Part shown: positions 8,163 through 49,392 of the stretch, piece after piece
Numbering within the stretch: position 1 is the stretch's first letter
Layout of the letters: each line of letters opens with the position of its first letter
From: Gammaproteobacteria bacterium
GTDB lineage: Bacteria; Pseudomonadota; Gammaproteobacteria; JAJDYQ01
Direction of reading: 5' to 3'
NCBI GenBank assembly: GCA_965214035.1
Contig: OZ243932.1
Span: forward strand, 1,857,260 to 1,921,259
DNA: 64,000 nucleotides
Notes under the pieces: generated by a model
Told to the model about the DNA's origin: nothing
Database searches by the model: none
What the model saw: only the letters and a program-made list of their open reading frames with translations
Made by a program: the position numbers and the translations under genes

Positions 8163-8400
8163 AATCTGTTGAACTATGATATAATACAGGCTTGGTACTG
8201 CCGATACCCAGAGTCATACCGGGATAGCCGGCTACATCGAAAAGACAATAACAAGCAAAACACTCTCATGGCTTGTTGCGCCCAACAACCCGTTCCCGGA
8301 TCTCTGGGTATAACATTGAAGCAAGGGACAGCAAGGCAATCATCAGCACCCTACATACCTGAATATCAAAACCAGCATCGACAATCCTGCCGCGACAAAA

Positions 8401-9489
8401 TCACCCTTGCCCGAACATTTTCATAATGCGGGAAACCATCTTGCTTACTGCCTCGTCATCATGCGCACAAACTGTTATATGCCCTGTCTTTCTGCCGGGT
8501 CGCGGCTGTTTCTGGTAGTGGTGATAATGGGCACCTGACAGCTTGAGCACATCAGGCAAAGCCGGATATTCACCTATGATATTACACATGGCGCAGGGCG
8601 CAAGCGCAGACGTATCGCCGAGCGGCAGATCGCATATCGCCCTCAGATGATTTTCAAACTGGCTGCATACCGCACCATCAATGGACCAGTGACCGGAGTT
8701 ATGGACACGCGGTGCAAACTCATTAGCCAGTAACTCTCCGTTATAATCAAAAAATTCGAGGCCGAGGACGCCCACATAATCCAGATCTTCCATTAGCCGA
8801 TGTGTATAGTCTTCCGCCTTGGCCTGCAGGGGGTCATTCCGGCGCACCACCGAAGCAATCAAAATACCATGATGGTGATGGTTTTCAGTAACAGGATAAA
8901 AGCGCACTTCCCCACCATGGCTGCGCACTGCAATCACGGAAATCTCTCGATCAAACTGCATCATGGCCTCAGCGATCAGATCGTTATTACCGAGCTCCAG
9001 CCAAGCGGCCCGAACATCTTCTACTGTATGGACACGCGCCTGCCCACGACCATCGTAACCCTGATAACGAGTCTTCACGATCAAGGGTGCCCGATTATCA
9101 TGCAGAGCATCCAGCAGTTCCTGTTCGCACCCGATGACATAATACTCCGGTACAGCGATACCCAATTTTTCCAGATATTGCTTTTCCGTGAGCCGGTCCT
9201 GCGCGGTCAATATGGACACAGCGGGTGGAGAAATACGCTCGGCGGGAATGGCATCCAGCGTAAACTGAGAGATGTTTTCATTCTCAAAAGTCACAATATC
9301 GACACTATCGACAAACCTCCCAAGGCGTTGGATATCATGAAACCCACCACAAACATGCTCTCCCAACACATTGGCACAACCGTCGGGATTAGGGCTGTAA
9401 AAGGCAAAATCCAGACCGAGTGGCCTACCGGCCAGAGCCAACATACGAGCCAGCTGACCATTGCCCAGAATACCGATTCTCATGGTCAC
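8401..9489 (-). CDS. purK: N5-carboxyaminoimidazole ribonucleotide synthase
   Basis: 362 aa; ATP-grasp; directly downstream of purE. Confidence 0.9.
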   Translation of the reverse strand: MTMRIGILGNGQLARMLALAGRPLGLDFAFYSPNPDGCANVLGEHVCGGFHDIQRLGRFVDSVDIVTFENENISQFTLDAIPAERISPPAVSILTAQDRLTEKQYLEKLGIAVPEYYVIGCEQELLDALHDNRAPLIVKTRYQGYDGRGQARVHTVEDVRAAWLELGNNDLIAEAMMQFDREISVIAVRSHGGEVRFYPVTENHHHHGILIASVVRRNDPLQAKAEDYTHRLMEDLDYVGVLGLEFFDYNGELLANEFAPRVHNSGHWSIDGAVCSQFENHLRAICDLPLGDTSALAPCAMCNIIGEYPALPDVLKLSGAHYHHYQKQPRPGRKTGHITVCAHDDEAVSKMVSRIMKMFGQG

Positions 9490-10810: not shown

Positions 10811-11686
10811 TTAACGACAGATACGTAGTGACAAATCAACCGCCGCGACATTCTTCGTGATACTGCCGGACGATAGATAATTGACCCCTGTTTCCGCCAC
10901 CGCCGCGACATTATCCGACGTGATGCCCCCCGAAGCCTCCAGCTGACAACGACCTCGATTGAAGCGGCAAGCGGCTTTCAGTTGCTCGACAGAAAAATTA
11001 TCCAGCAGAATTCGGTCCGGTTCAGCCGCCACAGCCTGCTTGAACTCGTTCATATTCTCAACTTCCACCTCGACAAACATCCCGGGAAATCGCCCACGGG
11101 CAGCAAGCACGGCCCCACGAACCGACCCGACCGCCGCGATATGATTTTCCTTGATTAAAATGGCATCAAACAGTCCCATGCGATGATTCGACCCCCCTCC
11201 GCAGCGCACAGCATACTTCTGAGCACTGCGCAGGCCGGGAATGGTTTTGCGGGTATCGAGCACGACACAGCCAGTATGCGAGATCGCCCTGACACAGTGG
11301 CGGGTTGCAGTAGCGGTAGCTGACAACAACTGCACAAAATTCAAGGCAGTACGCTCACCGGACAGCAAGCCGGAAACCGACCCATGAATCGAGCACAACA
11401 CATCATTTACCGAGATGGCGGCACCATCGTGATATTGCCAGCTCACCACAATGTCAGGATCAAGCTGCCGGAAAACCTCATCAAACCAGACCGTACCGCA
11501 CAAAACCGCATCCTGTCGACAAACCACACGGGCCTCAGCAGAGCTGGTCTTGAGCAAAGCAGCCGTTTTATCACCATCGCCGACATCCTCGCGCAGCGCA
11601 GCACGGACGACCGAAACAATATCGTGAGGCAGGGCAGCGTGAAAATCAACAGCATCCGGCGGACTTGACATAAAAATGGACCTCAA
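10811..11686 (-). CDS. nadC: nicotinate-nucleotide pyrophosphorylase (quinolinate PRTase)
   Basis: 291 aa; QPRTase family conservation. Confidence 0.85.
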   Translation of the reverse strand: MRSIFMSSPPDAVDFHAALPHDIVSVVRAALREDVGDGDKTAALLKTSSAEARVVCRQDAVLCGTVWFDEVFRQLDPDIVVSWQYHDGAAISVNDVLCSIHGSVSGLLSGERTALNFVQLLSATATATRHCVRAISHTGCVVLDTRKTIPGLRSAQKYAVRCGGGSNHRMGLFDAILIKENHIAAVGSVRGAVLAARGRFPGMFVEVEVENMNEFKQAVAAEPDRILLDNFSVEQLKAACRFNRGRCQLEASGGITSDNVAAVAETGVNYLSSGSITKNVAAVDLSLRICR

Positions 11687-31574: not shown

Positions 31575-31680
31575 TATGCCTGCCTTTAGTCTCTTTTACG
31601 CTAACGAACTGCATAAGTAGCGTGGGCCTTGCCACATCCATGTCGAACGCACTGTCAGCGGAACCTTTGCGCAATACGCT
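31575..31680. other. candidate attC site (R-box-like GCGCAAC ... GTTAGCG with short terminal pairing)
   Basis: Box pattern only; internal pairing weak. Confidence 0.3.
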
Positions 31681-32645
31681 CAAACCAGTGTTGCGCTCTT
31701 GAAGGCTCCCATCGGTGCGATTGAATCGAGCGCTTGCAGAATCTCAAGGCTCAATGGCATATCAAGAGAGGTAAGATTTTCCTCGATACGAGAAATTTTG
31801 CGACTCCCTGGAATCGGAATAATATCTTCGCCCTGTGCAATTAACCATGCAAGAGCCAGTTGCGCTGGTGTCATGCCCAGCTCCGAAGCAATGTTTTTGA
31901 TGCCTTCGAGGCGCTCCAGATTGCTGCTGAAATTCTCACCCTGCATTTTGGGGTTGTGATTACGAAAGTCGTTAGCGCCAAGCTCCTTAATGGTGCCGGT
32001 TAGAAAGCCGGCACCGAGTGGCGACCAACACACAAGTACAGCTCCAATACTCCTGACAGCAGGTAAAATGTCGGCCTCAGCCTCACGGCGAAACAGTGAG
32101 TACTCATATTGAACTGCTGAAACAGGATGCACCCGATTTGCCTCAAGGATTTCATTTGCTTTCACATTAGAAAGACCGATTGCCTTCACCTTGCCCTCTC
32201 GGACCGCTTTCGCCATTGCCGAGACCGTCTCTTCAAACGGTGTTTCAGGGTCCAGGTAATGGGCGTAAAGCAGATCAATTCGTTCGATCCCAAGGCGTTT
32301 GAGACTATTGTCAATCGCACGCTTCACGTAATCCTTCCTGCCGTTTATTGTCAAGGGAAACCCCTAACCGGTGTCTAGTCGGCTCCCCGATTGACCTTCC
32401 TCGAATACGATTCCAAATTTGGTTGCAACAAAAGCACTTTTCCCTGCTTGCTTAATAGCCTGCCGGATCAGTTCCTCGTTGTGACCTGCACCATAGGCAT
32501 CGGCTGAATCGATCATCATATTTTGATCGATCACATGCACCAGAGTTTCTACAGCCACATGGTTATCACTCCGACCATAGTAATCCTCCAGCACCATTGC
32601 ACCATAACCGATTTGTTTCACTGGCTGTGAGTTGACACTGAACAT
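31680..32645 (-). pseudogene. aldo/keto reductase, frameshifted (integron cassette)
   Basis: N-terminal 93 aa (32364..32645) and C-terminal 224 aa (31680..32354) of one AKR in different frames; junction near 32355-32365. Confidence 0.75.
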
Positions 32646-32692
32646 GATGACTCCCTGTTATTGATAATCTCGATTTTCTCGACTCATGTTAA

Positions 32693-32766
32693 AACTAACG
32701 ACCAGACTCACCAGCAGCAATGGAGTTCAGCAGAGTTGCCGTCTGATGCAGTACCTTATTGTATGC
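32693..32766. other. attC-like cassette boundary repeat (family member X)
   Basis: About 75 percent identical to the repeat at 35582-35653; begins AACTAACGACCAG; lies between REase stop and AKR start. Confidence 0.5.
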
Positions 32767-32776
32767 TTTTTTTGTT

Positions 32777-33736
32777 TCACAGCTTGATTAACCAGTCGCA
32801 TAATGAAACAACTTGCTCTTCATTTGTTAAGTTTGCTCCATTTGAAAGAGTGCCATCATTTAATTGCTGATATATCTCTTTCGCCATAGCATTTTCAATC
32901 GCCGCACCAACAAAAAATGTTTCAGGCTTACAGCCTTCCACAGAAAATGCTGCTCTAATCCTATGCAGTGCCGAGTTTGCGGTTTTCCAGTGCTCGTCTG
33001 CTCCCGCAGGATCAATTTCACCCTTTAGTTCTCCCAAAGCAAGATATTTCTCTGGATTATAGTATGCTGAATCCTTATTTCCACCGAAAATAATTTCATC
33101 AGGCGAGCAGTCAAACAGACAAAGATCCACATTCTTTTCAACCGTTGTTACAGTTAAATTGTAAATCAGAGTGTGTTTCTTTTTATTAGTGACCCAGTGC
33201 AGGCCTTTAACCTGCTTCTCAATTTCAGGCTCAGAGCTGGAGGACACCCATTTCCTTTTATTTGAATCAAGGTATTCAAAACTTGTTCCGCTTATGGAAC
33301 AGGTGGACACGAAAATTCTTGCAAATCTCCATTCACCTAATGATCCAGCCAGATTTCTCATGCTGCCGCCCAATGAATCACCTCTGGTAAGCAAGAAACG
33401 ATAAACCAGCTCATCAATAAATGACTGACCAGAAGGTTCCAGAAAATTTTCGATTAAACCCTTTATTGCCTCTTGTTTATCCTCTTCTCGCAAATGGTTT
33501 TTCGCCTTGTCAGAAATCCCTGATGCTGTAAGTAATGAATTTTTGATTTCACGTACTTTTAACAAATCTTTTGGCATTTTTGCTTGTGACGCATAAATCT
33601 TGAGTGCCTTGGCTTCTTCAATAAACGGAGTTGCTTTCCTGTTCTTTTCTAATGCTAACGAAATAAACCCTGCCCGTGTTTCCTCATAAGGAGTTATCAG
33701 GCTTTTATATGATTTTAAGTGGCTGTTAAATGGCAT
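32777..33736 (-). CDS. putative type II restriction endonuclease (partner of adjacent methyltransferase)
   Basis: 319 aa; 4-bp spacing from the MTase gene, same strand; no recognisable family motif. Confidence 0.5.
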   Translation of the reverse strand: MPFNSHLKSYKSLITPYEETRAGFISLALEKNRKATPFIEEAKALKIYASQAKMPKDLLKVREIKNSLLTASGISDKAKNHLREEDKQEAIKGLIENFLEPSGQSFIDELVYRFLLTRGDSLGGSMRNLAGSLGEWRFARIFVSTCSISGTSFEYLDSNKRKWVSSSSEPEIEKQVKGLHWVTNKKKHTLIYNLTVTTVEKNVDLCLFDCSPDEIIFGGNKDSAYYNPEKYLALGELKGEIDPAGADEHWKTANSALHRIRAAFSVEGCKPETFFVGAAIENAMAKEIYQQLNDGTLSNGANLTNEEQVVSLCDWLIKL

Positions 33737-33739
33737 TTA

Positions 33740-35071
33740 TTACCCCTTTTTCCATACATACACACACTTCCTTAAAGAGGCCCGCCCATGCCTGCCCATT
33801 TGTTGAGAACTATTGCCTTTACCTTGAGGCAGGACAAGGATATTGACTACTTGAAAATCGATTGTTTCAGCTATTTTTGAAAGCATTGTATCCACAGATA
33901 TTGCTGCACCAGCATATCGAACATTGTCATTGACCATAAACATTAAGCCGCCACTGTTTAAAACTCGATAGCATTCCTGGATGATATAACCCATTTCATA
34001 GAAATAACCTCTGACCATACGAGCGATTCCACTATTATTAAGTTCTTTTTGGCCCTTCTTATAGTCTAAATAATTCAATATCTTCTGCAATAAAGGCAAA
34101 TTGTCACAAATGTCTATGGCTGTCTGCCAATTATGGTTAAAACAGATAAGCTCCTTTGATTTATTTTCTACCGTGCAACTTAACATTGCCTGTCGCAAGC
34201 CAAACAACTCATTTTCATTGATTCCCAGTATGGCATGTTCAAGCGCATAGGTGCGTGTATAGTCGTAACGATTACAGTAAGGAGGAGAGGTCATTATTCC
34301 TGAATAAGCACAATCTTTTAAGGTCGGCAGAATATCCAAACATGAACCTTTTGATAAATTAATTTCTCCGGCTCTTATATTCCTCCGCAAATCTGAGAAC
34401 AGATCCTCTTTGCCACTACCATGATCCATATCATTTTTTATTTCATTCAGCTTTTTTAGAATAGCCTCATCGAATGAAGAAATCCGTCTTTTATCAAAAG
34501 CGTTTTTACTATTCTTGCGCTCGGCTCTGTAATCCCATCGAAGATACTGCCCGTCTTTTCTTGTATAGCCAATGGACTCAAGCACACATAACAGAGCAAA
34601 TAGTAATATATCCTTTATTTTGAGGAGTTCATGTTCCAGTTCGTTTAGATATCGGCCTATTTTTTCATGTGTCTCTGAAGAATATGCTCCATCAGTGATG
34701 CGAAGTACTTCAAAATTTTTAATTTCGCCTTTAGTACTCCAGGGTTTCTGAAGCAGCCATTTTTCTAATCCATCAATAATATTTTGTTTATTCGCACCTC
34801 TGGCAAGGATATTTGCACTGATGATTTTTTGCCCAACGGGTAAGACCTCAATTCCCTCGGAGTCATAGCCCAATGAGGAAGATGCGAATAAGGCCGTACC
34901 TGCACCGGCGAAAGGATCAAGTATCTTACCGTGAATGACATGATATCTACAAAAAAGATATTCCACCAAATCTGCGGAAAAAGCCTCTTTATATTTATAC
35001 CACCTATAGTATGTGCGGGCTTTATTGGCCTGAAAACTAACCAGCTTTCTGGTCAGAGCATCATCAACCAC
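33740..35071 (-). CDS. DNA methyltransferase (N6-adenine or N4-cytosine, alpha-type motif order)
   Basis: 443 aa; motif I DPFAGAGT about 200 aa before motif IV SPPY. Confidence 0.8.
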   Translation of the reverse strand: MVDDALTRKLVSFQANKARTYYRWYKYKEAFSADLVEYLFCRYHVIHGKILDPFAGAGTALFASSSLGYDSEGIEVLPVGQKIISANILARGANKQNIIDGLEKWLLQKPWSTKGEIKNFEVLRITDGAYSSETHEKIGRYLNELEHELLKIKDILLFALLCVLESIGYTRKDGQYLRWDYRAERKNSKNAFDKRRISSFDEAILKKLNEIKNDMDHGSGKEDLFSDLRRNIRAGEINLSKGSCLDILPTLKDCAYSGIMTSPPYCNRYDYTRTYALEHAILGINENELFGLRQAMLSCTVENKSKELICFNHNWQTAIDICDNLPLLQKILNYLDYKKGQKELNNSGIARMVRGYFYEMGYIIQECYRVLNSGGLMFMVNDNVRYAGAAISVDTMLSKIAETIDFQVVNILVLPQGKGNSSQQMGRHGRASLRKCVYVWKKG

Positions 35072-35251
35072 AAAGGCATCAGAGAAATATTGAGTTAATA
35101 AACTGTCCAGCTCGTCTATTTCCCTTAAAAAATTTTCATCTCTTGAAACTTGGGCCTTATGATTTTTTTCTTCGATTAATTCGATTTGTATTTTGCAAAC
35201 ATCCCTTTCGAGTTAAGATTTATGTGCTCCGGCGCAGAGTTATTTGGCCTG

Positions 35252-35566
35252 TTATGTGCTGACACTAAACCAGAATTCAATTTCATCCGTTTCAACCTCA
35301 AACCGTGCGGCATGCTCTACATTGTCAGGTACGTGATACCATTGACCCACACCTATACGTTGAGTTTCATCATTCATTGTAAGTATCAGCTCGCCTTTTG
35401 TGATGACACCATGATTCTCTGTATCATGTGTATGAGGCGGGATTTCTGTTCCCGCTGGATAAGATGCAAAAAGCACATCACTATCTTTGGCTTCCAGTTT
35501 ATATGCGTCAAAACGACCATCATATAGCGGAAGTTGTTTTATTTTGTCAGGGTAATTTCCAGACAT
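35252..35566 (-). CDS. cupin domain protein (integron cassette)
   Basis: 104 aa; cupin motifs PPHTHDTENHGVITKG and WYHVPDNVEH; AAGGAG RBS. Confidence 0.75.
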   Translation of the reverse strand: MSGNYPDKIKQLPLYDGRFDAYKLEAKDSDVLFASYPAGTEIPPHTHDTENHGVITKGELILTMNDETQRIGVGQWYHVPDNVEHAARFEVETDEIEFWFSVST

Positions 35567-35581
35567 TCTTTTCTCCTTATG

Positions 35582-35653
35582 AAATAACGACCAGGCCCAC
35601 TAGCATCAATGGAGCACAGCGCAACTGCCGTCCGGTACAGCGCATTGTTAGAG
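35582..35653. other. attC-like cassette boundary repeat (family member Y; R boxes AAATAAC / GTTAGAG)
   Basis: Homologous to 32693-32766; cassette-strand R'' CTCTAAC exactly complements GTTAGAG formed with first bases of upstream cassette. Confidence 0.5.
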
Positions 35654-36126
35654 CTGACTCGATGACATACAGAATTTTAGCCCATGTTCTCCTCCGATAC
35701 GCCCAGAGAGTAAAACGAGTAATTCTCTGACAGGCTGCTGCATCAATCCAACGCCCCGTTTTGAATTCGATGGCGACCCGATGCCCTTTATTTCTCTATT
35801 CCCAAAGCCGATTGAATTTCGAGGCATCTCGTTTGTAGTTCGGATACCAATGCGGGACGAATTTGATTTCGATGACACTGAGGATAGTGCTGTCTTTGCA
35901 AAGGACAAGGTCAGACTTTAACTCGTAGCCTCCCCGTTGATTGAGGAGCAAACCTGATTCGACGAAGGGCTTAACGTCGGGCAGCTGATCACGTATGGCC
36001 CGGTATAGGCAGGCTTGCAGACATCGCTCAGAGTTTATGAAATCTATTGGTAATCTCCCTCCACTTTCTTCCAGGCCGTGTGCAGCTTTGAATAGTTCAT
36101 GGCATGGACCCCATAGCTCTAACTAT

Positions 36127-36182
36127 TAAACCCAGCGGCGGTGTAACCATCTTCTAGAGCTCCGGGTTATGTGCCAGGATTA
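36127..36182. other. short attC site (R boxes CTCTAAC / GTTATGT on + strand)
   Basis: Cassette-strand R'' ACATAAC exactly complements GTTATGT reconstituted with first 6 nt of its cassette; shares CGCCGCTGGG with attC at 37303-37401. Confidence 0.5.
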
Positions 36183-36783
36183 GCCTCGATCCAGGTGTAC
36201 CTGCGGCCATCCCTCAGTTCCTTCCATCGTATGACGTACTTGCCTTCAATCACTACCTCCTGATCCTTCGCTCCAGTTGGTTTTACGATCTTTCCATGCA
36301 ACGGTTCGCCACCTCGAAAGTACTTATAGATTCCGTTAGCACTTCCGGAATGGAAAGGACGCTGTTCAACGACCGCAAGGAAGAGGCAGCTTGAGAAGCC
36401 CGCCACCTTGAGCTCTTCCAAGAACGCGATGTCTTTGCAAAAACTGAACATCTGCTCCGAGCACTGACCTGCTCTCGGATACTTGAGCTCAACCGCCAAC
36501 CGTAGCTGATTCCGAGGCGTGTCAAAGCACGTAACATCAATCTCTCTTTTCACAAACGACGGGTGTGAAAACCGAAAATAGGACACATTCCTTTCGAACT
36601 GAACCAGCTTTGCCACATTTTTTCTCGAAGAAATATTCCGAATTCGTGCTGAAGACTGAATTCGTTGTAGATTTCGATATGGCCATCGTTCAGTCGCTGG
36701 GCGAACTCCCCGATCAGTGCTTCAGGCTTTACGGAGGCCGTCATCATGGTTGGGCGAGGCAGTGGTAGCACATAACGCTTCAT
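36167..36783 (-). pseudogene. hypothetical protein, frameshifted (integron cassette)
   Basis: Two adjacent minus-strand ORFs (36550..36783 and 36167..36616) overlap in different frames. Confidence 0.45.
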
Positions 36784-36834
36784 TCAGGTGCGCCGCAGGG
36801 TTCCGCAGGCATCACCTGGAATGACTTGTTATGC
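36770..36834. other. integron attC site
   Basis: ACATAAC-GC-TTCATTCAGGTG...CACCTGGAATGAC-TT-GTTATGC; imperfect palindrome with one extrahelical base, unpaired spacers, R''/R' boxes. Confidence 0.8.
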
Positions 36835-37281
36835 GTCTGGGACTTTTTGGGTGTAATGATCGAATGCTGTAATTTTTGTATAGCCTTCTGCCTCGTAGAG
36901 ACTTTTGGCTTTTAAGTTGTCAACTGCTGTTGCCAACTTAACTGTTGTGGCTTTTGTAGATTTTGCGTAGCTTTGAACATGCTGAAGTAATGATTTTGCT
37001 ATGCCCTGCTTTCTTGAATTTTCAGTTACGTACAGATCGTTGAGCAACCAAATACTTCTCATTGCCACTGAAGAAAATGAAGGATAAAGCTGTACGAACC
37101 CTAATGTTTCATTTGCTTCTGATTGAGCAAGAAAAATAACTGAGTCATTTTTAGTCAGTCTCTGCTCAATAAATTTGTGAGCTTTTTCTAAGTCAGACTC
37201 TTGCCCATTAAACTGACGATATAAATCGAAGAGATATGAAACGCTATTTATTTCTTCTTTTGTCGCTTCGATGATTTTCAT
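36829..37281 (-). CDS. GNAT family N-acetyltransferase (integron cassette)
   Basis: 150 aa; acetyl-CoA binding motif RKQGIAKSLL; flanked by attC sites. Confidence 0.85.
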   Translation of the reverse strand: MKIIEATKEEINSVSYLFDLYRQFNGQESDLEKAHKFIEQRLTKNDSVIFLAQSEANETLGFVQLYPSFSSVAMRSIWLLNDLYVTENSRKQGIAKSLLQHVQSYAKSTKATTVKLATAVDNLKAKSLYEAEGYTKITAFDHYTQKVPDA

Positions 37282-37302
37282 AGAACTTTCAATTTTCTTG
37301 AC

Positions 37303-37401
37303 GCATAACGCGGTGCTAAGCGGCGCCCAGCGGCGAAGCCGCGGTTTGGGCGTCCGGCGGAGGGCCGTAGGCCCGGAGCAAACTTGAGCACCTTGTTATG
37401 T
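37303..37401. other. integron attC site
   Basis: GCATAAC-GC-GGTGCT-AAGC...GCTTGAGCACC-TT-GTTATGT; GC-rich imperfect central palindrome; extrahelical base on minus-strand 5' arm. Confidence 0.85.
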
Positions 37402-37408
37402 GACGTAT

Positions 37409-38672
37409 TCAATCGATTGGCACCACGAGAATACCAAGCGTACCACAAAACAAACCCAAGATGTAGAGTGCCAACCACCAGCGAGAATTGAATTTCTCCC
37501 AAGAGTTCTTCCCTTTCCATGATTGAATCTCCCATCCTGCGCGACCGATCACTCCCCAAGCTACCATAAGAATAACTTTTCTTGATAGTACGAACTCTAG
37601 AATATTATTGTCTGGAGCCTTCATGAAAAATTTTGAAGTTGAGGATGATAGTTCATTTAGCTTAAGCGGCTTATCACTGTTGCTATTTAGAAGTATAGAC
37701 TTTCTTAAATCTAATCGAGTACTTATTAAACTACTGTGAGTTGCGATAATTATTTGATTTTGATGGGACTCTGATATTTTTGAAATAAGCCTTTTCATGT
37801 TGCTGTGGCTCAGATGATTTTCAGGTTCCTCTAAAAGGAGGGTATCTAACGTATTATTTTCAGCGTTACGATTCAGAGCGAATTCAGTTTTTATGAAGCA
37901 CTGCTGCCCTTGTCCTTTAGCATCTATCGGAATATCACCTTGAGTCAGAGTGATGTCAGCTTCCAGATTGTATTTTGACCCTGAGCGTATGGCCAGCTCG
38001 TAACTGCCTAATCCAGCATTAATATCTTTGAGTTTATTCTCTTTGAATTGTATTTTTTGTAACCGATATTCGTTGCTCAGGCTTACTCTATTTGCATGAT
38101 CTACAATGGAATCATAGACTGTTCTTATGTATTCGTTGTTTGCATGCTCGCTATTAATTTTTGAGCTATCTATTGTTAGACACCTAAGGAATCGGCGATA
38201 ACCGGAATATGTCTCACCATTAAAAGTAATGAATTTAACAATATAAAATTCAAATGGAAAATTTCCGTTATCTAATGCTAAGACCTGATTAATTTCATTG
38301 ATTAGCTCTTCATTAGGAATGACAAATCATATGCAGCCCGCTAGCATTGATATTTTTCGAATTGTGTTTTCCGTAAATATCGGGATTTGTTTCATCACTC
38401 AAATAAGCTTCGACATGAACTTCAGGTAAGTTCTCAAAAGTCTTTTCACCCGCTGAAAATTCAGTTATCGATCCCTTATTAAGAATGGACTCAATACCTG
38501 TAGTCTCAACTTTATGCCTGCTTCCGCTGGAAAGCAGTTCGATTGCTTGTAATATTGAGCTTTTGCCGGCTTCATTATCTCCAATGATAGTATTAATCTT
38601 CGAATCAAATTCGACTTCAAATTCTTTGAATCTTTTATAGTTAATGAGCTTTAGTTGTTTTATGTGTTGCAT
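37409..38672 (-). pseudogene. AAA/ABC-type ATPase (AAA_21 / OLD-like ATPase domain), frameshifted
   Basis: Walker A GDNEAGKSS (38672..38313), then one open frame to 37409 carrying Walker B LLLEEPENHL and H-loop QIIIATHS; single frameshift near 38313-38330. Confidence 0.7.
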
Positions 38673-38730
38673 GCTTTCCTTTTCCAGTTCTGTGGAAATG
38701 CTAGTAGATTAAGTTGAGCGTATAACGTCG

Positions 38731-38815
38731 GAATAACCTGCAGCTCACAGCGCATTTTGGAGATGTGAAAATACCAACACATTGGAAAAGTGCGCTGTGA
38801 GCTGTCAGGTTAATT
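38731..38815. other. integron attC site
   Basis: GAATAAC-CTGCAGCTCACAGCGCA...TGCGCTGTGAGCTGTCAGG-TTAATT; 18-bp stem with one extrahelical A. Confidence 0.8.
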
Positions 38816-38839
38816 CCCTGGTTAGGCAGCGCCCCTACG

Positions 38840-39651
38840 CTATAGATGCAATCTTCCATCAAACACAATCACTGCTTCTCCACGAATCATTAACTGGTCC
38901 CCAGCCAACTCTAAGCTCATTGAGCCTGTGCGTTTCGACGATTGGAAGGACTCTAGTTTGGTCCTCCCTAGACGGATAGACCAGTACTTAGCAAGGAAGG
39001 TGTGAGTGCCCCCAGTTACAGGGTCTTCTTCAGTGCCACTCCAAGGCCAGAAATATCGGGAATGGAAATCGAATCCGTCTGCGCTAGAGCGCGCAGTAAC
39101 TAATACGCCATTGATCGAATCATGGGACGCTAGGAGCGCCGCGAAATCAGGGCTGAGGCTCGCGAGTAGTTTCGTGTCGTCGATTTCAAGGAGAAGGATG
39201 CGTGTCTCTTCATTGTAAACCGCATTGCTGACACTATCGATTCCCAACGCTGCGAGTAATGGCCCTGGCACGTCGCATGGGTGCGTATCGTAAACAGGAA
39301 ACTCCATTTCAATCTTATTCGCGCGTTTAGTCGCGACCAGACGGAGCCCTTGAGTATTAACGAATGTTGTTTCCTCTACTCCGAATTCAGTAAACACGAT
39401 TTTCGCGCGATGCCAAGGTGGCATGGCCGCATAGCGGAATTTCCATTTTCGGAGAGAAGTACCGAATTGAGTACTCGCCCGTGCCGTTCAGTTCTGTAAT
39501 GAAGGCGGTTTCCGAAAGCATTTTGCTGCGTACCGTGTATCTCAGAAGTCCCAGAAGTTGATTTACGATGTCTAGGAAACCACCAGGCAAAAAATGCCAC
39601 TACTACTCCAAGAGCTGCAATTATCAATCCCGCAACTTCGATACTCATCAC
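38840..39651 (-). pseudogene. PhzF-family (phenazine biosynthesis-like) protein, frameshifted (first cassette)
   Basis: PhzF motifs split over three frames (LSETAFITE...LCGHATLAS in 39590..39387; PVTGGTHTFLAKYW in 39424..38840). Confidence 0.7.
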
Positions 39652-39654
39652 TTA

Positions 39655-39820
39655 GCCGCTAACTATTAATAGACATCCTAATCTATCACAAAATGCGGAT
39701 AAATGATACGGCTTTTCGCTATAATTATTTTAGCATTAAAATATATTGATACTATTGATTTAATGACGCTTTTTGTTTTATCAAATATTTGATGTTGCCT
39801 GAATTCTGGAAAACAAGAAA
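39655..39820. promoter_or_regulatory. candidate attI / Pint-Pc region upstream of intI remnant
   Basis: AT-rich 165 bp between first cassette and intI start; junction motif CTAACTATTAA (39659-39669). Confidence 0.35.
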
Positions 39821-40561: not shown

Positions 40562-40753
40562 ACTTTTTTCACTTGGCGCCAGTAATAATCAGATCTAAAT
40601 CGGAGGTGATTTTCACGCAATCATACCGCAGGCATGCACACAATGGTGCGCTGAATTTGGAGTTTGCGTTGATCACATTGTGCAGAAGATACAATTGCAA
40701 TATCGTTTGGCTTAACGGTCGTTACCTACTCCTTACTTGATAGTTACCTGAGA

Positions 40754-40846
40754 ACATAACGATTGCGGCAACCGGCGCAGCCCACTGTCTGTCCCGCATA
40801 GCGTCAACCCTCGTTTCCCGGCGTCAGGCTCATTGCGTTGTTAGGG
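40754..40846. other. attC-like repeat (R boxes ACATAAC / GTTAGGG) downstream of GmrSD operon
   Basis: Same box pattern and partial homology (CTAACAA.GC, AGTGGGC) to repeats at 32693 and 35582; no strong internal palindrome. Confidence 0.4.
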
Positions 40847-41284
40847 CGCACGGCCCGAGTGCAGTATTTTCCATTGGAGATAACTTTTCAGTTGTGACGC
40901 CAACTTCTCGGGAAAACACTCCAGAATCTCAATCCACGACAACTGCTTGATGATGACATTAGTCTCAAGTTGCCAGTCCTCATCCCCGAAGACATTGGCC
41001 GAGCGACCAGCACCCAGTACGATAAAGTTGTTCACCCTCGGCATGGCCCGTCGCGCTTGAGTCTCACAATACCTTACTCGAAGATCTAGCTGGCTACGAT
41101 TTCCGGCGACACCCTGACCTGTGTTTAGCTTCGAGTTCCACTTCGCCTCGCCGAGAAGAAGCGTGGTGTCTGAACGAAGCGCGAAGTCGATCTCTGGCCC
41201 GCCACTTGACTCAGGCTTCTCAGGGTGAGGAAGTCTGCGCCAAAGCCAACAAACTGGGGCATCGGTAACTGTTGCTACGCCCAC
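40841..41284 (-). CDS. PD-(D/E)xK nuclease core (C-terminal half of split HsdR-N-like nuclease)
   Basis: 147 aa; IDFALRSD...LLGEAKW matches D-(x)n-E-x-K; in frame with upstream ORF, separated by a single TAA. Confidence 0.5.
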   Translation of the reverse strand: MGVATVTDAPVCWLWRRLPHPEKPESSGGPEIDFALRSDTTLLLGEAKWNSKLNTGQGVAGNRSQLDLRVRYCETQARRAMPRVNNFIVLGAGRSANVFGDEDWQLETNVIIKQLSWIEILECFPEKLASQLKSYLQWKILHSGRAP

Positions 41285-41806
41285 TTATTCGAGGATGCGA
41301 TTAAAGACGCTTAGCCGTGTGCTGGCGGGCGCATAGGCAAGACTCCCAAATACGCTCCATGTCACAGCGTCCTCGCTGTTCAGAGACTGTAGGTCCGTGT
41401 AGTGGCCCAATCCCGACGTTGCGGCCTCGGAGTCTTTCCCGGTACAACCCTCGAATTTGCTGCTCGCGTAGTATTTCTGGAGAAGCTCTGGCGTAGGCCA
41501 AGGAGAACATGTTCTGACCATGCTGTCGTCCGGGTGTGTAGTGACCAGCACACCGCCTCTGCTTTCAGCTAGAGAGATAGTCCTATCTTCGAGCCAAGGG
41601 TTGATGACATTGAGCCGCTCGCGCAGCACCGGCAGCATCACGACCTCGGTGAGGCTCTCCCGATGGGTGTCAGCCGGGGTCTGCTTCATACCCATCAGGT
41701 CGATGATCTCCCAACCCAAGCTCGCAAGCTGGTCGAGCAGCGGCTTCTCGACGTGGTTGCGCTCGTCAAGCTTAATCTGCTTCGGCGTTTTGCCTGGGGA
41801 GATCAT
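41285..41806 (-). CDS. HsdR-N-terminal-like domain protein (N-terminal half of split nuclease)
   Basis: 173 aa; EKPLLDQLASLGWEII...ESLTEVVMLPVLRERLNVINPWL resembles type I HsdR N-terminal helix. Confidence 0.5.
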   Translation of the reverse strand: MISPGKTPKQIKLDERNHVEKPLLDQLASLGWEIIDLMGMKQTPADTHRESLTEVVMLPVLRERLNVINPWLEDRTISLAESRGGVLVTTHPDDSMVRTCSPWPTPELLQKYYASSKFEGCTGKDSEAATSGLGHYTDLQSLNSEDAVTWSVFGSLAYAPASTRLSVFNRILE

Positions 41807-43920
41807 TCTGAAGCTTCTCCATTGGGCTTTTCGCCGTCGACTGTTCCAATAAACAGTAGTTTCTCCCGTGCCTTGTCATCGGCGAAATGAATGTTCCAAC
41901 GCTTCTCCATGAATTTCAGCAACTGAATGCCTCGCTCGCGAATTTCATCGGGGCCCCAATCCTTGTAATTAGAGACTTCGATTTCAGAGTGCGAACCATC
42001 TGCATAGCCGTTGCGGATCTTGCTGCCATCGCGATTGTACTTGGGCTTTTTCTTTTCAGCGAAGGCGTTGTTCTGTAGCGAAGAGTTGATCGCGGAAGAG
42101 AGGAGCAAAAGGTTCCCGAGGCTATTGCGGTACGCCTCCCGCTCTCGTTCGCGAATACCTTTGAAAGCTGGCTTCCAAGCCGCCGTCTCGGACTGCGGGC
42201 AAATGTGCTCGATGGATATCTTGTCCTTCGGCGACTTGAGCAAATCTGCCCAGTCAACCTTCTTGTCGCGACTCTTGGACAGCAACCCCAACTCGTACTC
42301 GTAGAGGAAATACCGCAAGCCGGGCCAGTCGTAGTAGCCCTGACCGTTCTCGAATTTCTTCTGAAGCAACAGATAGAAGTCATCATTCGCAAAATGGCCC
42401 TCATCCGTGAAAGTAAAGCTCATCCGGTCACGCAGTCGCTCCTTCAGTTCCGCCAAATCCATGTCGCCACGGTCGATCGCGCGTACCGCGTTGCTGAACT
42501 CCGAGCTGCGATAATTCGAACGGGTTTGGGTCAGCCGGAACACGACGAAGATAAACCGTTCGATCTCCTTGAATGTACCGATACGCTGAACGCGATCATT
42601 GCATTTCTTCAGAATCGCCATCAGCAACGGGCGAAAGTACGCCATGCCCAGCCGATTCAGACGTTGAATCCATTCAATTTCTTCCCGGGTCAAATCGCCG
42701 GACATTTCGGGGTAAAACGTGCAGAACCAGTGAACCGAAGACGCCTTGAGGCTCTTGACGTAGTCGCGAATCTCTTTCGGCCGCAACTCAGCGGCCATCA
42801 TCGGGTCGCTGCTTTCCACCTCGTCCAGTCCGTTCTCGTCGTCCGCTTCCAGGTCCGCGTCAGATGTCTGCTCCTCGGCTTCCTCCAGTTCAACCAGTTG
42901 AACGATCTTGCGATGAACGCGCTGCGGTGTGAACTGCTCCTCCAGCAGAAACTTGATGTAATCTCGCCCCGTCTGCCGAGAGTACTTGAAATACATCATC
43001 CAGTGGCCCCGCAGAAAGTCGTCGTCGTTCAGCGGCTTCGACTTGTTACGCCCCAACTGGAAGTAAACCTCCTTCCAAGCTTTGTTGATTAAGTCACGGA
43101 GATCGCTGCGCTCCGCGGGGTCCAGTTCCGCATCGGTATAGAGGGTCGTCAGGTAGATCAAACGATTCTTGAGCAATTCCAGATCTGAAAGCGTCTTGCC
43201 GCGGTTGTTCATCGTCTCGAAGGCGACGAAAACGTCGAACTCATCCTTGATGATGTACTCGTTAAACAGGAACCGTTTGGTCAGCATGCGGTACATACCT
43301 TGAAGCCCTGAGAGTCCTTCTTTTTCGTGCCAAGCTCGTAGTTGCTCTTTGAAGTAGTGTTTCCCATTGCTGAGATTGAGCGTATAGAACGTCTCGAACA
43401 CCGTGCCACCGCCCTCTTCGCCCAGAATTCGGTACCGCATGTACTGGTCACTGGGGTTGTCAACCGTGTAGCCGAACTTGTACGTCCGAAAGGCTTCCCC
43501 GGCCGGTTTCACCTCGAACAGAAACTTTCTTTCGACGGCCGCGATGCTGAGCGTATCGGTCAGGCAGATCGCGTCATCCACCTGACCCTTGTTTTCAGGC
43601 AAGCTGCGAAGCAACTCGATGAAGGCTTGCAGAAACAGCGTGAACGTCGTCAGCCGCTGCTGACCGTCGACGATGTGGTACACCTTGTACGAATGGTCAT
43701 CAACCAGCCAAAATTCCTTGTCATCCTGCTGAATGTCGGCGGATGGAATCTCCTTCAGAGTCAGCACACCGGTATAGTGGGAGCGACCGTCGGGCAGGTT
43801 GATGAGATCCTCCCAGAAGGCGTCCAGCTGCTCGCGTCCCCAGGCGTAACCACGCTGGTAGTCGGGAATTCGGAACAGCCTCTCCTTGAAGAGGCTATCG
43901 AGTGGTTTGGGTTCGTCCAT
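41803..43920 (-). CDS. GmrSD-like DUF262 (ParB/Srx-like NTPase) + DUF1524 (His-Me finger nuclease) protein
   Basis: 705 aa; DGQQR motif (IVDGQQRLTTF) N-terminal; HIEHICPQS...N HNH-like motif C-terminal; GC-rich by eye. Confidence 0.8.
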   Translation of the reverse strand: MDEPKPLDSLFKERLFRIPDYQRGYAWGREQLDAFWEDLINLPDGRSHYTGVLTLKEIPSADIQQDDKEFWLVDDHSYKVYHIVDGQQRLTTFTLFLQAFIELLRSLPENKGQVDDAICLTDTLSIAAVERKFLFEVKPAGEAFRTYKFGYTVDNPSDQYMRYRILGEEGGGTVFETFYTLNLSNGKHYFKEQLRAWHEKEGLSGLQGMYRMLTKRFLFNEYIIKDEFDVFVAFETMNNRGKTLSDLELLKNRLIYLTTLYTDAELDPAERSDLRDLINKAWKEVYFQLGRNKSKPLNDDDFLRGHWMMYFKYSRQTGRDYIKFLLEEQFTPQRVHRKIVQLVELEEAEEQTSDADLEADDENGLDEVESSDPMMAAELRPKEIRDYVKSLKASSVHWFCTFYPEMSGDLTREEIEWIQRLNRLGMAYFRPLLMAILKKCNDRVQRIGTFKEIERFIFVVFRLTQTRSNYRSSEFSNAVRAIDRGDMDLAELKERLRDRMSFTFTDEGHFANDDFYLLLQKKFENGQGYYDWPGLRYFLYEYELGLLSKSRDKKVDWADLLKSPKDKISIEHICPQSETAAWKPAFKGIREREREAYRNSLGNLLLLSSAINSSLQNNAFAEKKKPKYNRDGSKIRNGYADGSHSEIEVSNYKDWGPDEIRERGIQLLKFMEKRWNIHFADDKAREKLLFIGTVDGEKPNGEASE

Positions 43921-43986
43921 CGCGATACTCGTTGATTAATTATGGGAATTATATGGGAATTATATACTTGACTCCCTAGTGTCTCG

Positions 43987-44649
43987 TCATATTTCTTGTG
44001 TTGGATATAGTCGTTTTAGTTTGATGCGCGCGTCTTCAGTTGTGAACTGCCAATCCACCTGAGTCTGCAGGCGGTCCCGTGAGGCTTGCCAGGCAGCGAC
44101 CTCACGTGCGAGTATGTCCATACGGTCGATACGCCGATTCAGGCATTGGCGGTTCATGACATTGAGTTCGATTTCAGCCACATTCAGCCAACTACCGTGC
44201 TTTGGGGTGTACACGAACTCGAATCGGTCCCATAGTGCTTTGGCTTGTGCCGGTGGGTAGGCTTCATAGAATGCACCGGGGCGGTGGGTATTGAGATTGT
44301 CCATGACCAAGGTGATGCGGGTGGCATCCCGATAGCGTGCGGCGATGTCGGAGAGGAACTGCGCCCAATCGGTTCGGGTTCTACGTTCGGTTACTTGGGT
44401 CATCCGCTTGCCAGCCAAAGGTTCGGTGGCCATGAAGACATTACAGGTTCCACAACGCTGGTATTCGTAGTCGTATCGGGCTGGCTGTCCTGGACTCATG
44501 GCAACCGGCGTACGAGTCTCCCGAATCAGTTGGCGCGGTGTCTCGTCCATGCATACTACCGGGAAAGCGGCATCGTAGGGACGCCGGTAAACATCCAGCA
44601 CCTTTTCCATCGCGGCGACGAACTCGGCGTTGCCTTGTGGCGGAATCAC
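43987..44649 (-). CDS. IS630-family transposase, DDE catalytic part (orfB)
   Basis: 220 aa; DDE motifs (VVCMDE, VMDNLNTH, SWLNVAE). Confidence 0.85.
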   Translation of the reverse strand: MIPPQGNAEFVAAMEKVLDVYRRPYDAAFPVVCMDETPRQLIRETRTPVAMSPGQPARYDYEYQRCGTCNVFMATEPLAGKRMTQVTERRTRTDWAQFLSDIAARYRDATRITLVMDNLNTHRPGAFYEAYPPAQAKALWDRFEFVYTPKHGSWLNVAEIELNVMNRQCLNRRIDRMDILAREVAAWQASRDRLQTQVDWQFTTEDARIKLKRLYPTQEI

Positions 44650-45122
44650 CCATCCGACCCGCGGCCATGGTTTGAGTTCGTTTTTTTTAGAACCCGTCGC
44701 ACGGTTTCATGGGACACCGAATCAATGTAACCCAGTTCCACAACCCGGTCGGCCAAGAGCCGCAACGACCATTGCGCGTAACCCGCCGGAGCTTCATCAC
44801 AGGCCAAAGCCACCAGACGCGCCTCGAATTCGCCGTCGGCCTTACGAATATAGGTGAGCCTGCGCCCTTGGCGGCCTCCTAGCGCCGCATCCAGACCTTC
44901 CTCCACAAACCGCTTCTTCACTCGATCCACCTTGCGCATGCTGATGCGTAGTATGTCCGAGATGGCTTCCCCAGTGGAATGCCGATCATTGAAAACACCT
45001 TCATCGCAGTTGAGCAGGATCAACGCATTAATCACCTTTTGGGACCGATGCGAACCCTTGTTCGTGATACCTGTCAATTCATCTCGCTCCGCTTCGTCCA
45101 ACGTCACCCTATAGCGTTTCAT
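44646..45122 (-). CDS. IS630-family transposase, N-terminal HTH part (orfA), joined to orfB by frameshift
   Basis: 158 aa; HTH domains; A8 slippery run (coding strand) at 44684-44691 at the orfA/orfB overlap. Confidence 0.8.
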   Translation of the reverse strand: MKRYRVTLDEAERDELTGITNKGSHRSQKVINALILLNCDEGVFNDRHSTGEAISDILRISMRKVDRVKKRFVEEGLDAALGGRQGRRLTYIRKADGEFEARLVALACDEAPAGYAQWSLRLLADRVVELGYIDSVSHETVRRVLKKTNSNHGRGSDG

Positions 45123-45206
45123 ACATTCAACCTCGTCTTAAACAGAAAACAAGGAATCTATCATATTATATGCGACATATCATGTATGACGAGACACTAG
45201 TCTCCA

Positions 45207-46068
45207 TTAATTAAAGCACGAAGATTGGTTGCCAAGTGGTTTAAATCGAAGATGTAAATGCTTGCGGCCAGCATGATGCCAGACACCGTACAGCCCTCGG
45301 CGCAACAGTGCCCAGACGCTTTCGATGCTGTTCGTATGGATATCGTTCGCACCGACATACTCCCCGGCACTGTGCTTGACGTGTCCATGCTCGTATCCGG
45401 CCAGTCCTTGATAGGCGGTCGCTTCCTCCGTGTAGACCGATGATCCCTTCTTGACGTGTTGCTTGATGGTGCCCTGTAGCGTCTCCTTCTTGGTATCCCC
45501 TACTGGCATCGCCACGGTGCGTCCAGTCGCCCGTTCTCGCAACCCTACGACCGCTTGCTTACCGACCGCTCCCCGACCTTCATGTAACTTTTTCCATTCG
45601 TGTTTGTTCTTTTCCTTACCGCCGATATAAACCTCATCGACTTCGACTTCACCGGACAGCATCCCGCCATCACTGCCATCACCACAGGCCTCACGGATAC
45701 GCACCTGCATAAACCAAGCGGTCTTTTGTGTCACTCCAATCTGCTTTGATAATTGCAGACTGGATATCCCCTTGCGTTCCGTGACCGTCATGTAGATCGC
45801 GTAAATCCACTTGTGTAGGGGAACGGATGACCGCTCAAAGATCGTTCCGGTACGCACCGTAAATTCCTCGTTGCAGTCTTTGCATCGGTAGTACCCCAAC
45901 CGCTTTCCCTACCTGGCGTAGATGTTGCCAAAGCAACCGCAATGAGCACAAACGGGCGTACCTTTCCAGCGCTGTTGCTCAATGTAGCATCTGGCTGATT
46001 CAGCATTGGGAAACTGCTCAAACAGTTCGACCAGGGAAATTGTGATATTATCTTTCATTGTGCTTTCC
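45207..46068 (-). pseudogene. IS1595-family transposase with in-frame TAG
   Basis: N-terminal zinc ribbon MKDNITIS...CAHCGCFGNIYAR then in-frame TAG (about 45900) then GKRLGYYRCKDCNEEF...DDE region to 45207. Confidence 0.7.
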
Positions 46069-46129
46069 TATTGACATGACCCATTTTATAACGCAACAGC
46101 TAGGGAGTCAAGTATATAATTCCCAAAAG

Positions 46130-46520
46130 TTATTGGTTATGCGCAAAGCAGAGTTTGAAGAGGATTTGGCCGCCGGGTTAGTGGGGTTTTTATGCCCGAT
46201 GCTTTGATGCGCAAATATCCAGATGCACAACGTGAGTGGATTTGGCAATATGTTTTTTCCTCGCCAAAATTATCACAAGACCCAAGAACAGGAATAGTCA
46301 GGCGCCATCATATTTATGAGCAATCTATTGGACGAGCGATTAAACAGACAGCACGTGATGGACAAATAGCAAAAAGAGTGAGTGCTCACACCTTCAGGCA
46401 TTCGTTTGCCACGCATCTGCTTGAGGCAGGCTATGACATTCGTACCATTCAAGATTTATTGGGGCATAAACATGTAGAAACCACAATGATTTATACCCAT
46501 GTGCTCAAATCGGGGGGACA
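46130..46520 (+). pseudogene. intI: integron integrase IntI, C-terminal fragment (5'-truncated at IS1595 end)
   Basis: [25 protein letters not shown]...[16 protein letters not shown]...[45 protein letters not shown] matches IntI C-terminus including IntI-specific insert and catalytic Y; frameshift near 46180; no stop. Confidence 0.8.
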
Positions 46521-46596
46521 GGGGGGCAGTCGCCTTTGGATGTATTGTAATACTATCCTGACAAGCGAGGCTTTATTAAAATCCTGTCACTATCTT

Positions 46597-48281: not shown

Positions 48282-48400
48282 ATCTATACGAGATATCTAG
48301 CGATCAAACTCAGCCGGATGCGGAAAATTGGGAGTGATAGAGAAAAAATTTTTCCCCGAATAATCAGTTACGTGATTCACCATATATCTAACACCTCTGT

Positions 48401-48721
48401 TCAGCGGCGCAGCTTTACTGCGTCGGGCTGCATGCGCTTGTTAGTGGTCACATCTTGTAAGCTCCCAGACACATACTTGTGCAAAATGCTGGACACCAAT
48501 GTTTGATACGGGATACCCTCTATTAATGCACGCTTTTGAATGGCGTCCAGATCACGGCTCGAAATGCGGATATTTATCCGTTTATCTTTTTTAAAGGTAT
48601 GTGTTGCCATTTCCTGAATCTTCTTCCTGCGTGCGGATGTTAGTTTCGACTTAAACTCACCGGCCTCATAAGCCTTTAAAAGTTTCTTTTCATCTTTATC
48701 CAGTTTCACTTTACTCATCAC
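48401..48721 (-). CDS. brnA: BrnA-type antitoxin
   Basis: 106 aa; overlaps brnT by 11 bp; RHH-like C-terminal region. Confidence 0.6.
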   Translation of the reverse strand: MMSKVKLDKDEKKLLKAYEAGEFKSKLTSARRKKIQEMATHTFKKDKRINIRISSRDLDAIQKRALIEGIPYQTLVSSILHKYVSGSLQDVTTNKRMQPDAVKLRR

Positions 48722-48992
48722 TCTCCCCCAGATACTGTCTGGTTGCTTTTCGGCTTGGGATAATGGTTTTCAAAAAAATACCTTCCCTGGATTCCACGTA
48801 TGGTACCAAATAGACATAGCCTTCAATGGCTACGACATACATCCTTTGGTGCCCATAAACCTCCTGATTAGGAGGTTCAACATCATCCAGCAAGCTATCC
48901 GACTGAAGATGGAAAATAACTTCCTCAAAAGAGACTCCTCTTTCTTCAATGAGCTGCTTGTTTTTCTCCAGATCCCAATCGTATTGCTTCAT
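48711..48992 (-). CDS. brnT: BrnT-type toxin (DUF497)
   Basis: 93 aa; MKQYDWDLEKNKQLIEERGVSFEEV N-terminus typical of BrnT. Confidence 0.7.
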   Translation of the reverse strand: MKQYDWDLEKNKQLIEERGVSFEEVIFHLQSDSLLDDVEPPNQEVYGHQRMYVVAIEGYVYLVPYVESREGIFLKTIIPSRKATRQYLGESDE

Positions 48993-49392
48993 GGAATGTG
49001 AGTATAGCAGAATGTGAGCCTTTTGGCATCATTTTCAAGTGACCGCTAAGGCCGCCAATAGAGGTCGAAAAATCAGAGCGAAGCGGCGGTATTACGATCC
49101 CTCTAGGGGCCTTACTATACGCTTTAATCAACATGCATTGCTGTTTCTGCATATTCCTTTTTTGGCATCAGGCGTGCCATTTGATTCCCAAGGTAGTTGT
49201 GACATATAGTGCCTAAATCAGGTGCGCCGCGGGCGTCACCCGGATTTACTTGTCAGGTATGTGTTTGTGGTCGATCTGAACTTGCTTTATTTTATAAATA
49301 AACTCTGGCTTGTTAACATAAGCCATAGCTCTATCCCATAAAGGATTTGTACGGTCATAAAGATTCTTCGCAAGTGCCTTTATTTCGGTAGC

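Follow-up and report, generated by a model that had tools for sequence, protein, structure and literature searches.

A BsoBI-type restriction-modification module of probable integron-cassette origin, fused to a neighboring gene and apparently decaying in a gammaproteobacterial chromosome

We analyzed a 64,000-nucleotide stretch of a gammaproteobacterial chromosome (contig OZ243932.1, about 2.5 Mb long, of assembly GCA_965214035.1, from an uncultured organism; hereafter, the window) that carries a DNA methyltransferase gene (M) followed directly by a type II restriction endonuclease gene (R). The best named relatives of the host's RpoD, in Thiogranum and Thioalkalispiraceae metagenome-assembled genomes, are 65-67% identical to it. 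Our analysis favors the view that M and R constitute a BsoBI-type restriction-modification (RM) module that entered this lineage as an integron cassette, is now fused to an upstream gene, is bounded by degenerate recombination sites and is most likely decaying in this genome. In short, it is a defense module of an ordinary kind that is probably dying.

The methyltransferase-endonuclease pair

A first-pass annotation of this DNA had described two open reading frames (ORFs) on the same strand, and both are present, on the minus strand, at 35071..33740 and 33736..32777. The downstream ORF encodes a 319-aa protein, R, in which no family motif had been detected. On the contrary, the whole of R matches the Pfam profile Endonuc-BsobI (PF09194), with E=5e-143 and 476.6 bits (curated cutoff 25), residues 4-319 falling on positions 2-313 of the 313-position profile, and R aligns end to end with BsoBI (PDB 1DC1, chain 1dc1_A; E=8e-114), with 57% identity over 313 positions. 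The PADLOC REase_II model was also matched (3e-125), and several of the more than 5,500 homologs retrieved bear the source name 'AvaI/BsoBI family type II restriction endonuclease'. A check for membership of this ORF in a non-nuclease family returned none. From these matches, R (32777..33736, minus strand) is annotated as an AvaI/BsoBI-family type IIP restriction endonuclease.

Members of this family that have been studied, namely BsoBI, AvaI and NspIII, cleave C^YCGRG; they possess an EXK motif and a proposed catalytic histidine, and Lys81 and Asp246 read the degenerate positions of the site (PMC1920265). We compared R with its homologs in 80 other genomes, which are drawn from many phyla and are 54-79% identical to it; the best match in a scan of species-representative genomes, among which the source genome is absent, was at 79%. 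The catalytic residues D204, E236, K238 and H249 are kept in R, as are K77 and D242, which correspond to the base-recognizing Lys81 and Asp246 of BsoBI, and all of these are invariant or nearly so in the 80 homologs. The target of R is presumably CYCGRG, cut as C^YCGRG.

The native frame of M spans 483 codons (33740..35191, minus strand); from its first usable canonical start, a GTG at 35071, it would give a protein of 443 aa (35071..33740). M was recognized by the PADLOC MTase_II model PDLC03224 (5.6e-158), which covers residues 17-482 of 483, and it also matches Pfam N6_N4_Mtase. The motifs that had been read from the sequence are borne out: motif I, DPFAGAGT, lies at residue 92 and motif IV, SPPY, 210 residues further on at residue 302, both being invariant in 78 homologs. 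Given its linkage to R, M, an amino-methyltransferase of the SPPY type, presumably protects CYCGRG as N4-methylcytosine. In work by Ruan and coworkers (1996), N4-cytosine methyltransferases, of which SPPY is expected, reportedly accompany endonucleases of the AvaI/BsoBI type.

The two genes are tightly linked. As had been stated, R lies close behind M, 3 nt separating the M stop from the R start (TAA-TAA-ATG), and the Shine-Dalgarno sequence of R, AAGGGG, overlaps the 3' end of M. A promoter and terminator scan of the region returned a background level of sites (11 against 9.2 expected). In all 80 of the other genomes with an R homolog, M is found directly 5' of R on the same strand. The earlier presumption that the downstream ORF is the cognate endonuclease is thus upheld: by family and gene order, M and R make up a cognate type IIP RM system.

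Lesions and recent substitutions in M and R

The first-pass annotation had further called the system complete, with both genes intact, and this we now doubt. We compared the window with three metagenome contigs of its own lineage (L001, L002 and L003), whose nucleotide identity to it is about 94.5% for L001 and L003 and 98.7% for L002, and we assessed residue conservation over columns of 78 homologs for M and 80 for R. At 35191..35189, where all three relatives have the ATG of M, the window has ATA. An ATG lying 39-40 codons upstream of the window's GTG is the family start in nearly all close homologs, and the N-terminal segment of M (..FLxxIEELDxxLxxYF..) is conserved in the family. The in-frame stretch between the ATA and the GTG at 35071 holds no other canonical start, and no Shine-Dalgarno sequence precedes that GTG. 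The window M also carries S208G, G235R (G in 78 of 78 homologs) and G445D (G in 76 of 78), all at columns that are at least 95% conserved; at such columns, the M proteins of L001-L003 show no deviation at all.

R carries G240E and P197T, at positions that are G and P, respectively, in 79 of 80 homologs, and R188H (R in 78 of 80). The first of these alters the active-site motif GELKGGIDPAGADEHW, which reads GELKGEIDPAG in the window: the residue affected, the second Gly of GELKGGIDPAG, is also Gly in L001 and L002 and comes after the catalytic Lys and before the recognition Asp. Compared with that of L002, the window R differs by 15 nonsynonymous and 3 synonymous changes, which corresponds to a ratio of nonsynonymous to synonymous rates (dN/dS) of 1.4, against about 0.2 in deeper comparisons. 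Such a pattern would be improbable under an omega of 0.2 (P=1.8e-4) and is compatible with an omega of 1, that is, with neutrality (P=0.36). The relatives have R lesions of their own. L002 carries the radical changes P37R, G103D and W163L at invariant sites, and in L003 a frameshift splits R into pieces of 191 and 117 aa.

Over 32345-35590, 25 substitutions could be assigned to the window branch by polarization with L001 and L003. On the coding (minus) strand 14 of them are G>A and 4 are C>T, and four cluster within 34489-34538, mostly in GG contexts. A mutational process, DNA damage or an assembly artefact may underlie this strand-biased excess of G>A. Since systematic error or damage can yield a bias of this kind, with 14 of 25 changes in 3.2 kb going one way on one strand and four of these within 50 nt, the window-specific lesions might be taken for assembly or base-calling errors, the true genes being the L002 or L001 alleles. 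We consider this improbable. The changes share no common sequence motif, and there is not one indel among them, though indels dominate long-read errors. Furthermore, L002 and L003, which come from other samples, bear independent lesions in R. A public protein, P0001, is identical to the window R, though it probably stems from the same assembly; exact-protein look-ups with either sequence returned no recorded contig.

Several observations do weigh against decay. Both ORFs are uninterrupted, and all residues named as catalytic or base-recognizing in BsoBI are conserved in R (roles from PMC1920265). Three or more deviations at conserved endonuclease columns are found in 21 of 81 family sequences, so that the three of the window are within the family range. 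Translation of M might still begin at the GTG at 35071 or, with low efficiency, at the ATA. Finally, CYCGRG occurs 26 times in the 64-kb window, about 0.6 of the expectation of 43.6 ± 7.2 from dinucleotide-preserving shuffles, 100 of 100 of which held at least 26 sites; this depletion fits restriction pressure, past or present. Together with the close coupling of M stop and R start and the AAGGGG before R, these observations speak for a fully functional system, in which M, started at the GTG or the ATA, would methylate CYCGRG and so protect the chromosome, R would actively restrict incoming DNA and the substitutions would be tolerated polymorphisms.

We nonetheless hold full function to be doubtful, if a possibility to be taken seriously. 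The first 40 residues of M, which are conserved in the family and largely covered by the PADLOC model, would be absent or barely translated, and the GTG that would have to serve in their stead has no Shine-Dalgarno sequence. In M, an Arg replaces a Gly present in 78 of 78 homologs and, in R, a Glu replaces the near-invariant Gly of the active-site motif. R has a dN/dS of about 1.4 on recent branches and was disrupted independently in L003. The argument for the decay of R rests on how radical and how recent its changes are and not on their number. Taking both sides together, loss of R activity is the more likely reading, if by a modest degree of confidence, as far as can be judged from sequence. 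With M inadequate, the 26 unprotected target sites in the window alone would make an active R lethal, which fits a course of events in which R failed first.

Cassette origin, fusion and the surrounding array

That the pair arrived as an integron gene cassette, as the first-pass annotation had proposed, is supported by comparison with other genomes. In Ca. Spongiihabitans thiooxidans (L006), whose M and R are 77-78% identical to those of the window, an attC site ending in GGTTATGCG lies about 50 nt before M; R is followed by an attC (GCATAAC...GTTATGC) in which 23 of 23 pairs are Watson-Crick, and further attCs are found beyond it. Bacterium UASB270 (L033) has a full integron integrase (398 bits; cutoff 265) and, divergent from it, an array in which attCs at about 8330-8440 and 10968-11080 stand on either side of the M-R pair. 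Homologs of the M-R-attC unit are also present in the attC arrays of L039 and L055, and the four arrays belong to different phyla and differ in neighboring genes. In L006 and L033, the homologous cassette has its 5' boundary at the G|TT crossover point of the preceding attC. L006, L007, L009, L013 and L021 have, about 50 nt before the ATG of M, GTTAKGY and after it a leader (GCGCCAAAAG...).

The attC that accompanies the pair shows compensatory changes. When ten members of this RM-type attC were placed on the L006 structure, 72.7% of cells were paired, against 25-44% with the partners slid; nine pairs change on both sides, and the covariation score was reached in 2 of 500 shuffles. Loci of Calothrix, Poribacteria and deltaproteobacteria have R''-like boxes (GCRYATAACAA) roughly 10 nt beyond the stop codon of R.

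In the window, two direct repeats of 68 nt (32693-32760 and 35582-35649) are 74% identical. To score them, we used a covariance model trained on 21 attCs from the window array and related arrays, four of the window's sites being among the seeds. The model recovers these four seeds, and its best non-seed matches are the two repeats. The downstream site, the putative attC A (32691..32764, minus strand; 19.8 bits, E=0.015), directly follows R. An nhmmer profile and alignment show it to be homologous to positions 9503-9576 of L006, the attC behind R there, and it is degenerate: of the 23 pairs of the L006 homolog, 14 Watson-Crick and 3 G-T pairs are left. Its R' box is GTTAGTT and its R'' box ATACAAT, the latter having changed from AAC to AAT in the window (L002 has AAC, and the change was polarized against the relatives). 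The upstream site, attC B (35581..35653, minus strand; 24.5 bits, E=0.001), is the likewise degenerate end of the cassette that precedes a cupin gene. Its R' box, GTTATTT, is at 35588..35582, so that the cupin cassette begins after the G, and it matches an nhmmer profile of the RM-associated attC with E=9e-13. Thus the attC-like repeats that had been noted on both sides are real and score as attC, but the upstream copy lies beyond the cupin gene and not next to M.

One reservation bears on these scores. The training set of the model comes from few genomes and includes the L006 homolog, so that the score of site A is not fully independent; this, too, tells against the cassette reading to some degree. 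Thermodynamic folding does not help: site A folds no better than shuffled sequence (z about 0) and site B folds poorly (z +1.1 to +1.8). We dropped folding as a test of attC identity, since many bona fide attCs of this lineage likewise show no folding advantage over shuffles, and a folding-based detector recovered just half of the seeds; homology, pair counts and the covariance model were used instead. We also considered the place where homology between the window and L001/L003 breaks, which is at the R' box of site B, as proof of an integrase crossover, and rejected it: on the L001 and L003 side of the break there is no attC.

Between site B and M lies a Cupin_2 gene of 104 aa (35252..35566, minus strand; Pfam Cupin_2, 6.4e-11). 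Its homologs, 74-84% identical, were found in 80 marine metagenome contigs, where the stop codon typically falls inside ACATAAC, and in at least 8 of the 80 a complete attC follows that stop. The cupin gene is, by this comparison, a common cassette in its own right that was formerly separate from the RM cassette. In the window, the cupin stop codon is held by ACATAAC (35251..35257, minus strand), which, by alignment with intact cupin attCs, is the remnant R'' core box of a lost attC. It is followed by the conserved 5' leader of the RM cassette (TGCGCC...AAAGGGA, the latter a Shine-Dalgarno sequence; 35192..35236, minus strand), identified by alignment upstream of M and kept from TGCGCC at 35236 onward without the GTT crossover box present in other genomes. 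The intervening 60 nt, from the cupin stop to the start of M (35192-35251), contain no GTT box, no hairpin and no match to the attC model, and the junction in L001-L003 likewise shows ACATAAC and then the RM leader, with neither GTT box nor attC. Since cupin homologs elsewhere carry their own attC while the window and L001-L003 keep only ACATAAC, we infer that the cupin attC was deleted in the window lineage, and that this joined cupin, M and R into a fused unit of about 2.9 kb (35587..32693). The fusion is deduced from unfused homologs in other genomes; this exact cupin/RM pair was not found in an unfused state. As a further candidate, we examined whether ACATAAC...CTTAACTC after the cupin gene could be a short intact attC; this was rejected, as there is no complementary R' and no model match, and as intact cupin attCs differ from it.

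The proposed cassette therefore needs restating. Its integron origin stands, whereas the 2.4 kb formerly given for it does not, the present recombination unit being the fused three-gene block, with degenerate attCs, in an array whose integrase is a remnant. Direct repeats around a block that holds RM genes, neither of which folds better than shuffled sequence, could alternatively be the long target duplication of an RM pair that had moved as a selfish unit. This we regard as very unlikely. The repeats are just 74% identical and enclose not only the RM genes but also the cupin gene. Both of them score as attC, the one behind R is homologous to the well-paired attC after the same RM pair in L006, and L033 has the pair inside a complete integron.

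The integron of the window is broken. An integrase remnant (46159..46530, plus strand) corresponds to the C-terminal third of the protein, including the IntI-specific ALxRKYPxA...W segment (TIGR02249 positions 197-307 of 315); it scores 174 bits, below the 265-bit cutoff owing to truncation of the protein. Nested insertion sequences (IS), an IS630-like element inside an IS1595/ISXO2-like one (43954..46125; Pfam DDE_3, HTH_32 and DDE_Tnp_IS1595), have taken the place of the attI region and of intI over its 5' two-thirds. The nest has perfect 26-nt inverted repeats (43954-43979/46100-46125), with inner repeats at 43976-44009/45167-45200. Six same-strand attC matches were found between 32.7 and 40.8 kb. 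The locus therefore retains an attC array, but with intI truncated and the attI region occupied by IS it is not a full-length sedentary chromosomal integron. Leftward from intI, the minus-strand array comprises a GmrSD type IV enzyme gene accompanied by two small ORFs, DUF2784, PhzF and AAA_15 fragments, an ORF of unknown function, a GNAT gene, an unknown 149-aa ORF, cupin, M, R, a frameshifted aldo/keto reductase (AKR) gene and a 128-aa ORF, after which core genes begin. The RM cassette is the third from the distal end of the array. L001, L002 and L003 all carry cupin-M-R-AKR beside the same core genes, and their cassettes further up differ, making this the sole block conserved among the four genomes. 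We conclude that the block is old and has been inherited vertically at the distal end of the array.

These observations can be arranged as follows. A cassette of about 2.5 kb, consisting of leader, M, R and its own attC, would have entered the gammaproteobacterial chromosome via the integron. Truncation of the integrase by insertion sequences would have immobilized the array. Deletion of the upstream cupin attC down to its first core box would have produced the 2.9-kb cupin+M+R unit, and the attC behind R would have degenerated. R was probably inactivated by missense changes, notably G240E, and M has, probably afterwards, lost its conserved ATG and gained changes at invariant residues.

A broader proposal, which we put forward tentatively and think less likely to be right than wrong, is that the M-R pair with its own attC is a single old cassette lineage that integrons have spread across many phyla. 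Carriers of this lineage may include gammaproteobacterial sponge symbionts, Thermodesulfobacteriota, Stahlbacteria and UASB270, and Poribacteria and cyanobacteria may retain its relic core boxes. In the host lineage, the RM pair may have anchored the distal end of the array as an addiction module. If so, the three R lesions that arose independently in sister strains would capture RM death in progress after immobilization of the integron, with an orphan methyltransferase or full loss as the end point.

Other features of the region deserve mention. The AKR cassette 3' of R (31680-32645, minus strand) is frameshifted in the window into 93 and 224 aa, and it is broken differently in every genome: in L002 an IS256-family element (6642-7361) lies at the equivalent of window position ~32342, in L003 a deletion (10983) fuses the interior of the gene with the R'' box of the RM attC, and in L001 AKR is truncated. 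On the other side of the cupin gene, a stretch of about 600 nt without a long ORF (35650-36166, minus strand) separates the 149-aa gene from attC B. The short ORF fragments within it (for example ...SVIEIKFVPHW...) may be the remains of a degraded gene; since attC B resembles the attC after a BsoBI-type R in L038, an earlier RM-type cassette may have decayed here. Truncated cassettes occur at 38313-39424 (minus strand), with a 194-aa C-terminal fragment of PhzF and a 119-aa N-terminal fragment of an AAA_15 ATPase. L002 does not have the block 39659..36773, and the break is at the R' box of an attC at 36834..36769, consistent with gain or loss at the level of cassettes.

The first unit after the IS-disrupted attI region (40841-43920, minus strand) consists of three ORFs, packed so tightly that no attC would fit between them, encoding a 705-aa GmrSD-family type IV enzyme (PADLOC HEC-06/Orf5/SspE-like), a 173-aa protein with a weak HSDR_N match and a 147-aa protein. 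An attC at 40846..40753 follows, and the unit looks like a second, larger multi-gene defense cassette. To the right of the intI remnant, beside a NYN/LOTUS gene and an IS256-family transposase, a minus-strand BrnT/BrnA toxin-antitoxin pair (48401-48992) is bracketed by attC matches at 49258..49203 (19 bits, E=0.025) and 48446..48385 (13.4 bits). Cassettes in this position do not fit a simple integron layout and could reflect a rearrangement or a second attC cluster. Thirty kilobases from the array, between two small ORFs, there is an attC-like relic of the RM-attC type (1336-1417, plus strand, and also 1205-1225; nhmmer E=1.7e-4).

Relation to known systems

Integron cassettes are known to be enriched in restriction-modification and other defense genes, and type II systems in cassettes have been documented. 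A point of modest interest is that a classical, biochemically characterized endonuclease family circulates as an integron cassette with its own attC; a full-text literature search returned no paper that contains both 'BsoBI' and 'integron'. The window copy illustrates the aftermath of integron death, namely fusion through attC loss, decay of the remaining attC and relaxed selection on the nuclease in sister strains. It is also of use for annotation, as calling the RM system intact from its ORFs overrates its function here. The case is useful for thinking about how RM systems are lost and reveals no new mechanism.

The closest characterized relative is the BsoBI RM system of Geobacillus (Bacillus) stearothermophilus. 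R resembles BsoBI end to end at the 57% identity given above, and it has the EXK motif, the histidine and the equivalents of Lys81 and Asp246. It differs from BsoBI in G240E (BsoBI G244), P197T and R188H, and in its context, which is that of an integron cassette. The likeness is read from sequence, and both the specificity and the activity of the window enzyme are predictions. In the BsoBI system, R lies upstream of M, unlike the M-then-R order of the window. The AvaI RM system of Anabaena variabilis belongs to the same endonuclease family, by the source names 'AvaI/BsoBI family', and its recognition site is C^YCGRG (PMC1920265). Among the loci sampled, those of Nostoc are just 54-56% identical. 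The gene order at AvaI is presumably M before R, as in the window and the 80 homologous loci.

As for cassettes that carry RM genes, the PacI gene reportedly resides in a super-integron of Pseudomonas alcaligenes, in work by Vaisvila and coworkers (2001). The window shares with such cassettes a compact two-gene defense system in a chromosomal array, and its array also holds GmrSD and toxin-antitoxin genes. It differs in having a truncated integrase, a cassette that has become fused to its neighbor and genes that are apparently decaying. Multi-gene cassettes that became fused through the loss of an internal attC have been described for class 1 integrons. The cupin-RM unit resembles these in being bounded by a single attC-like pair and in carrying a remnant R'' box at the junction between the formerly separate cassettes.

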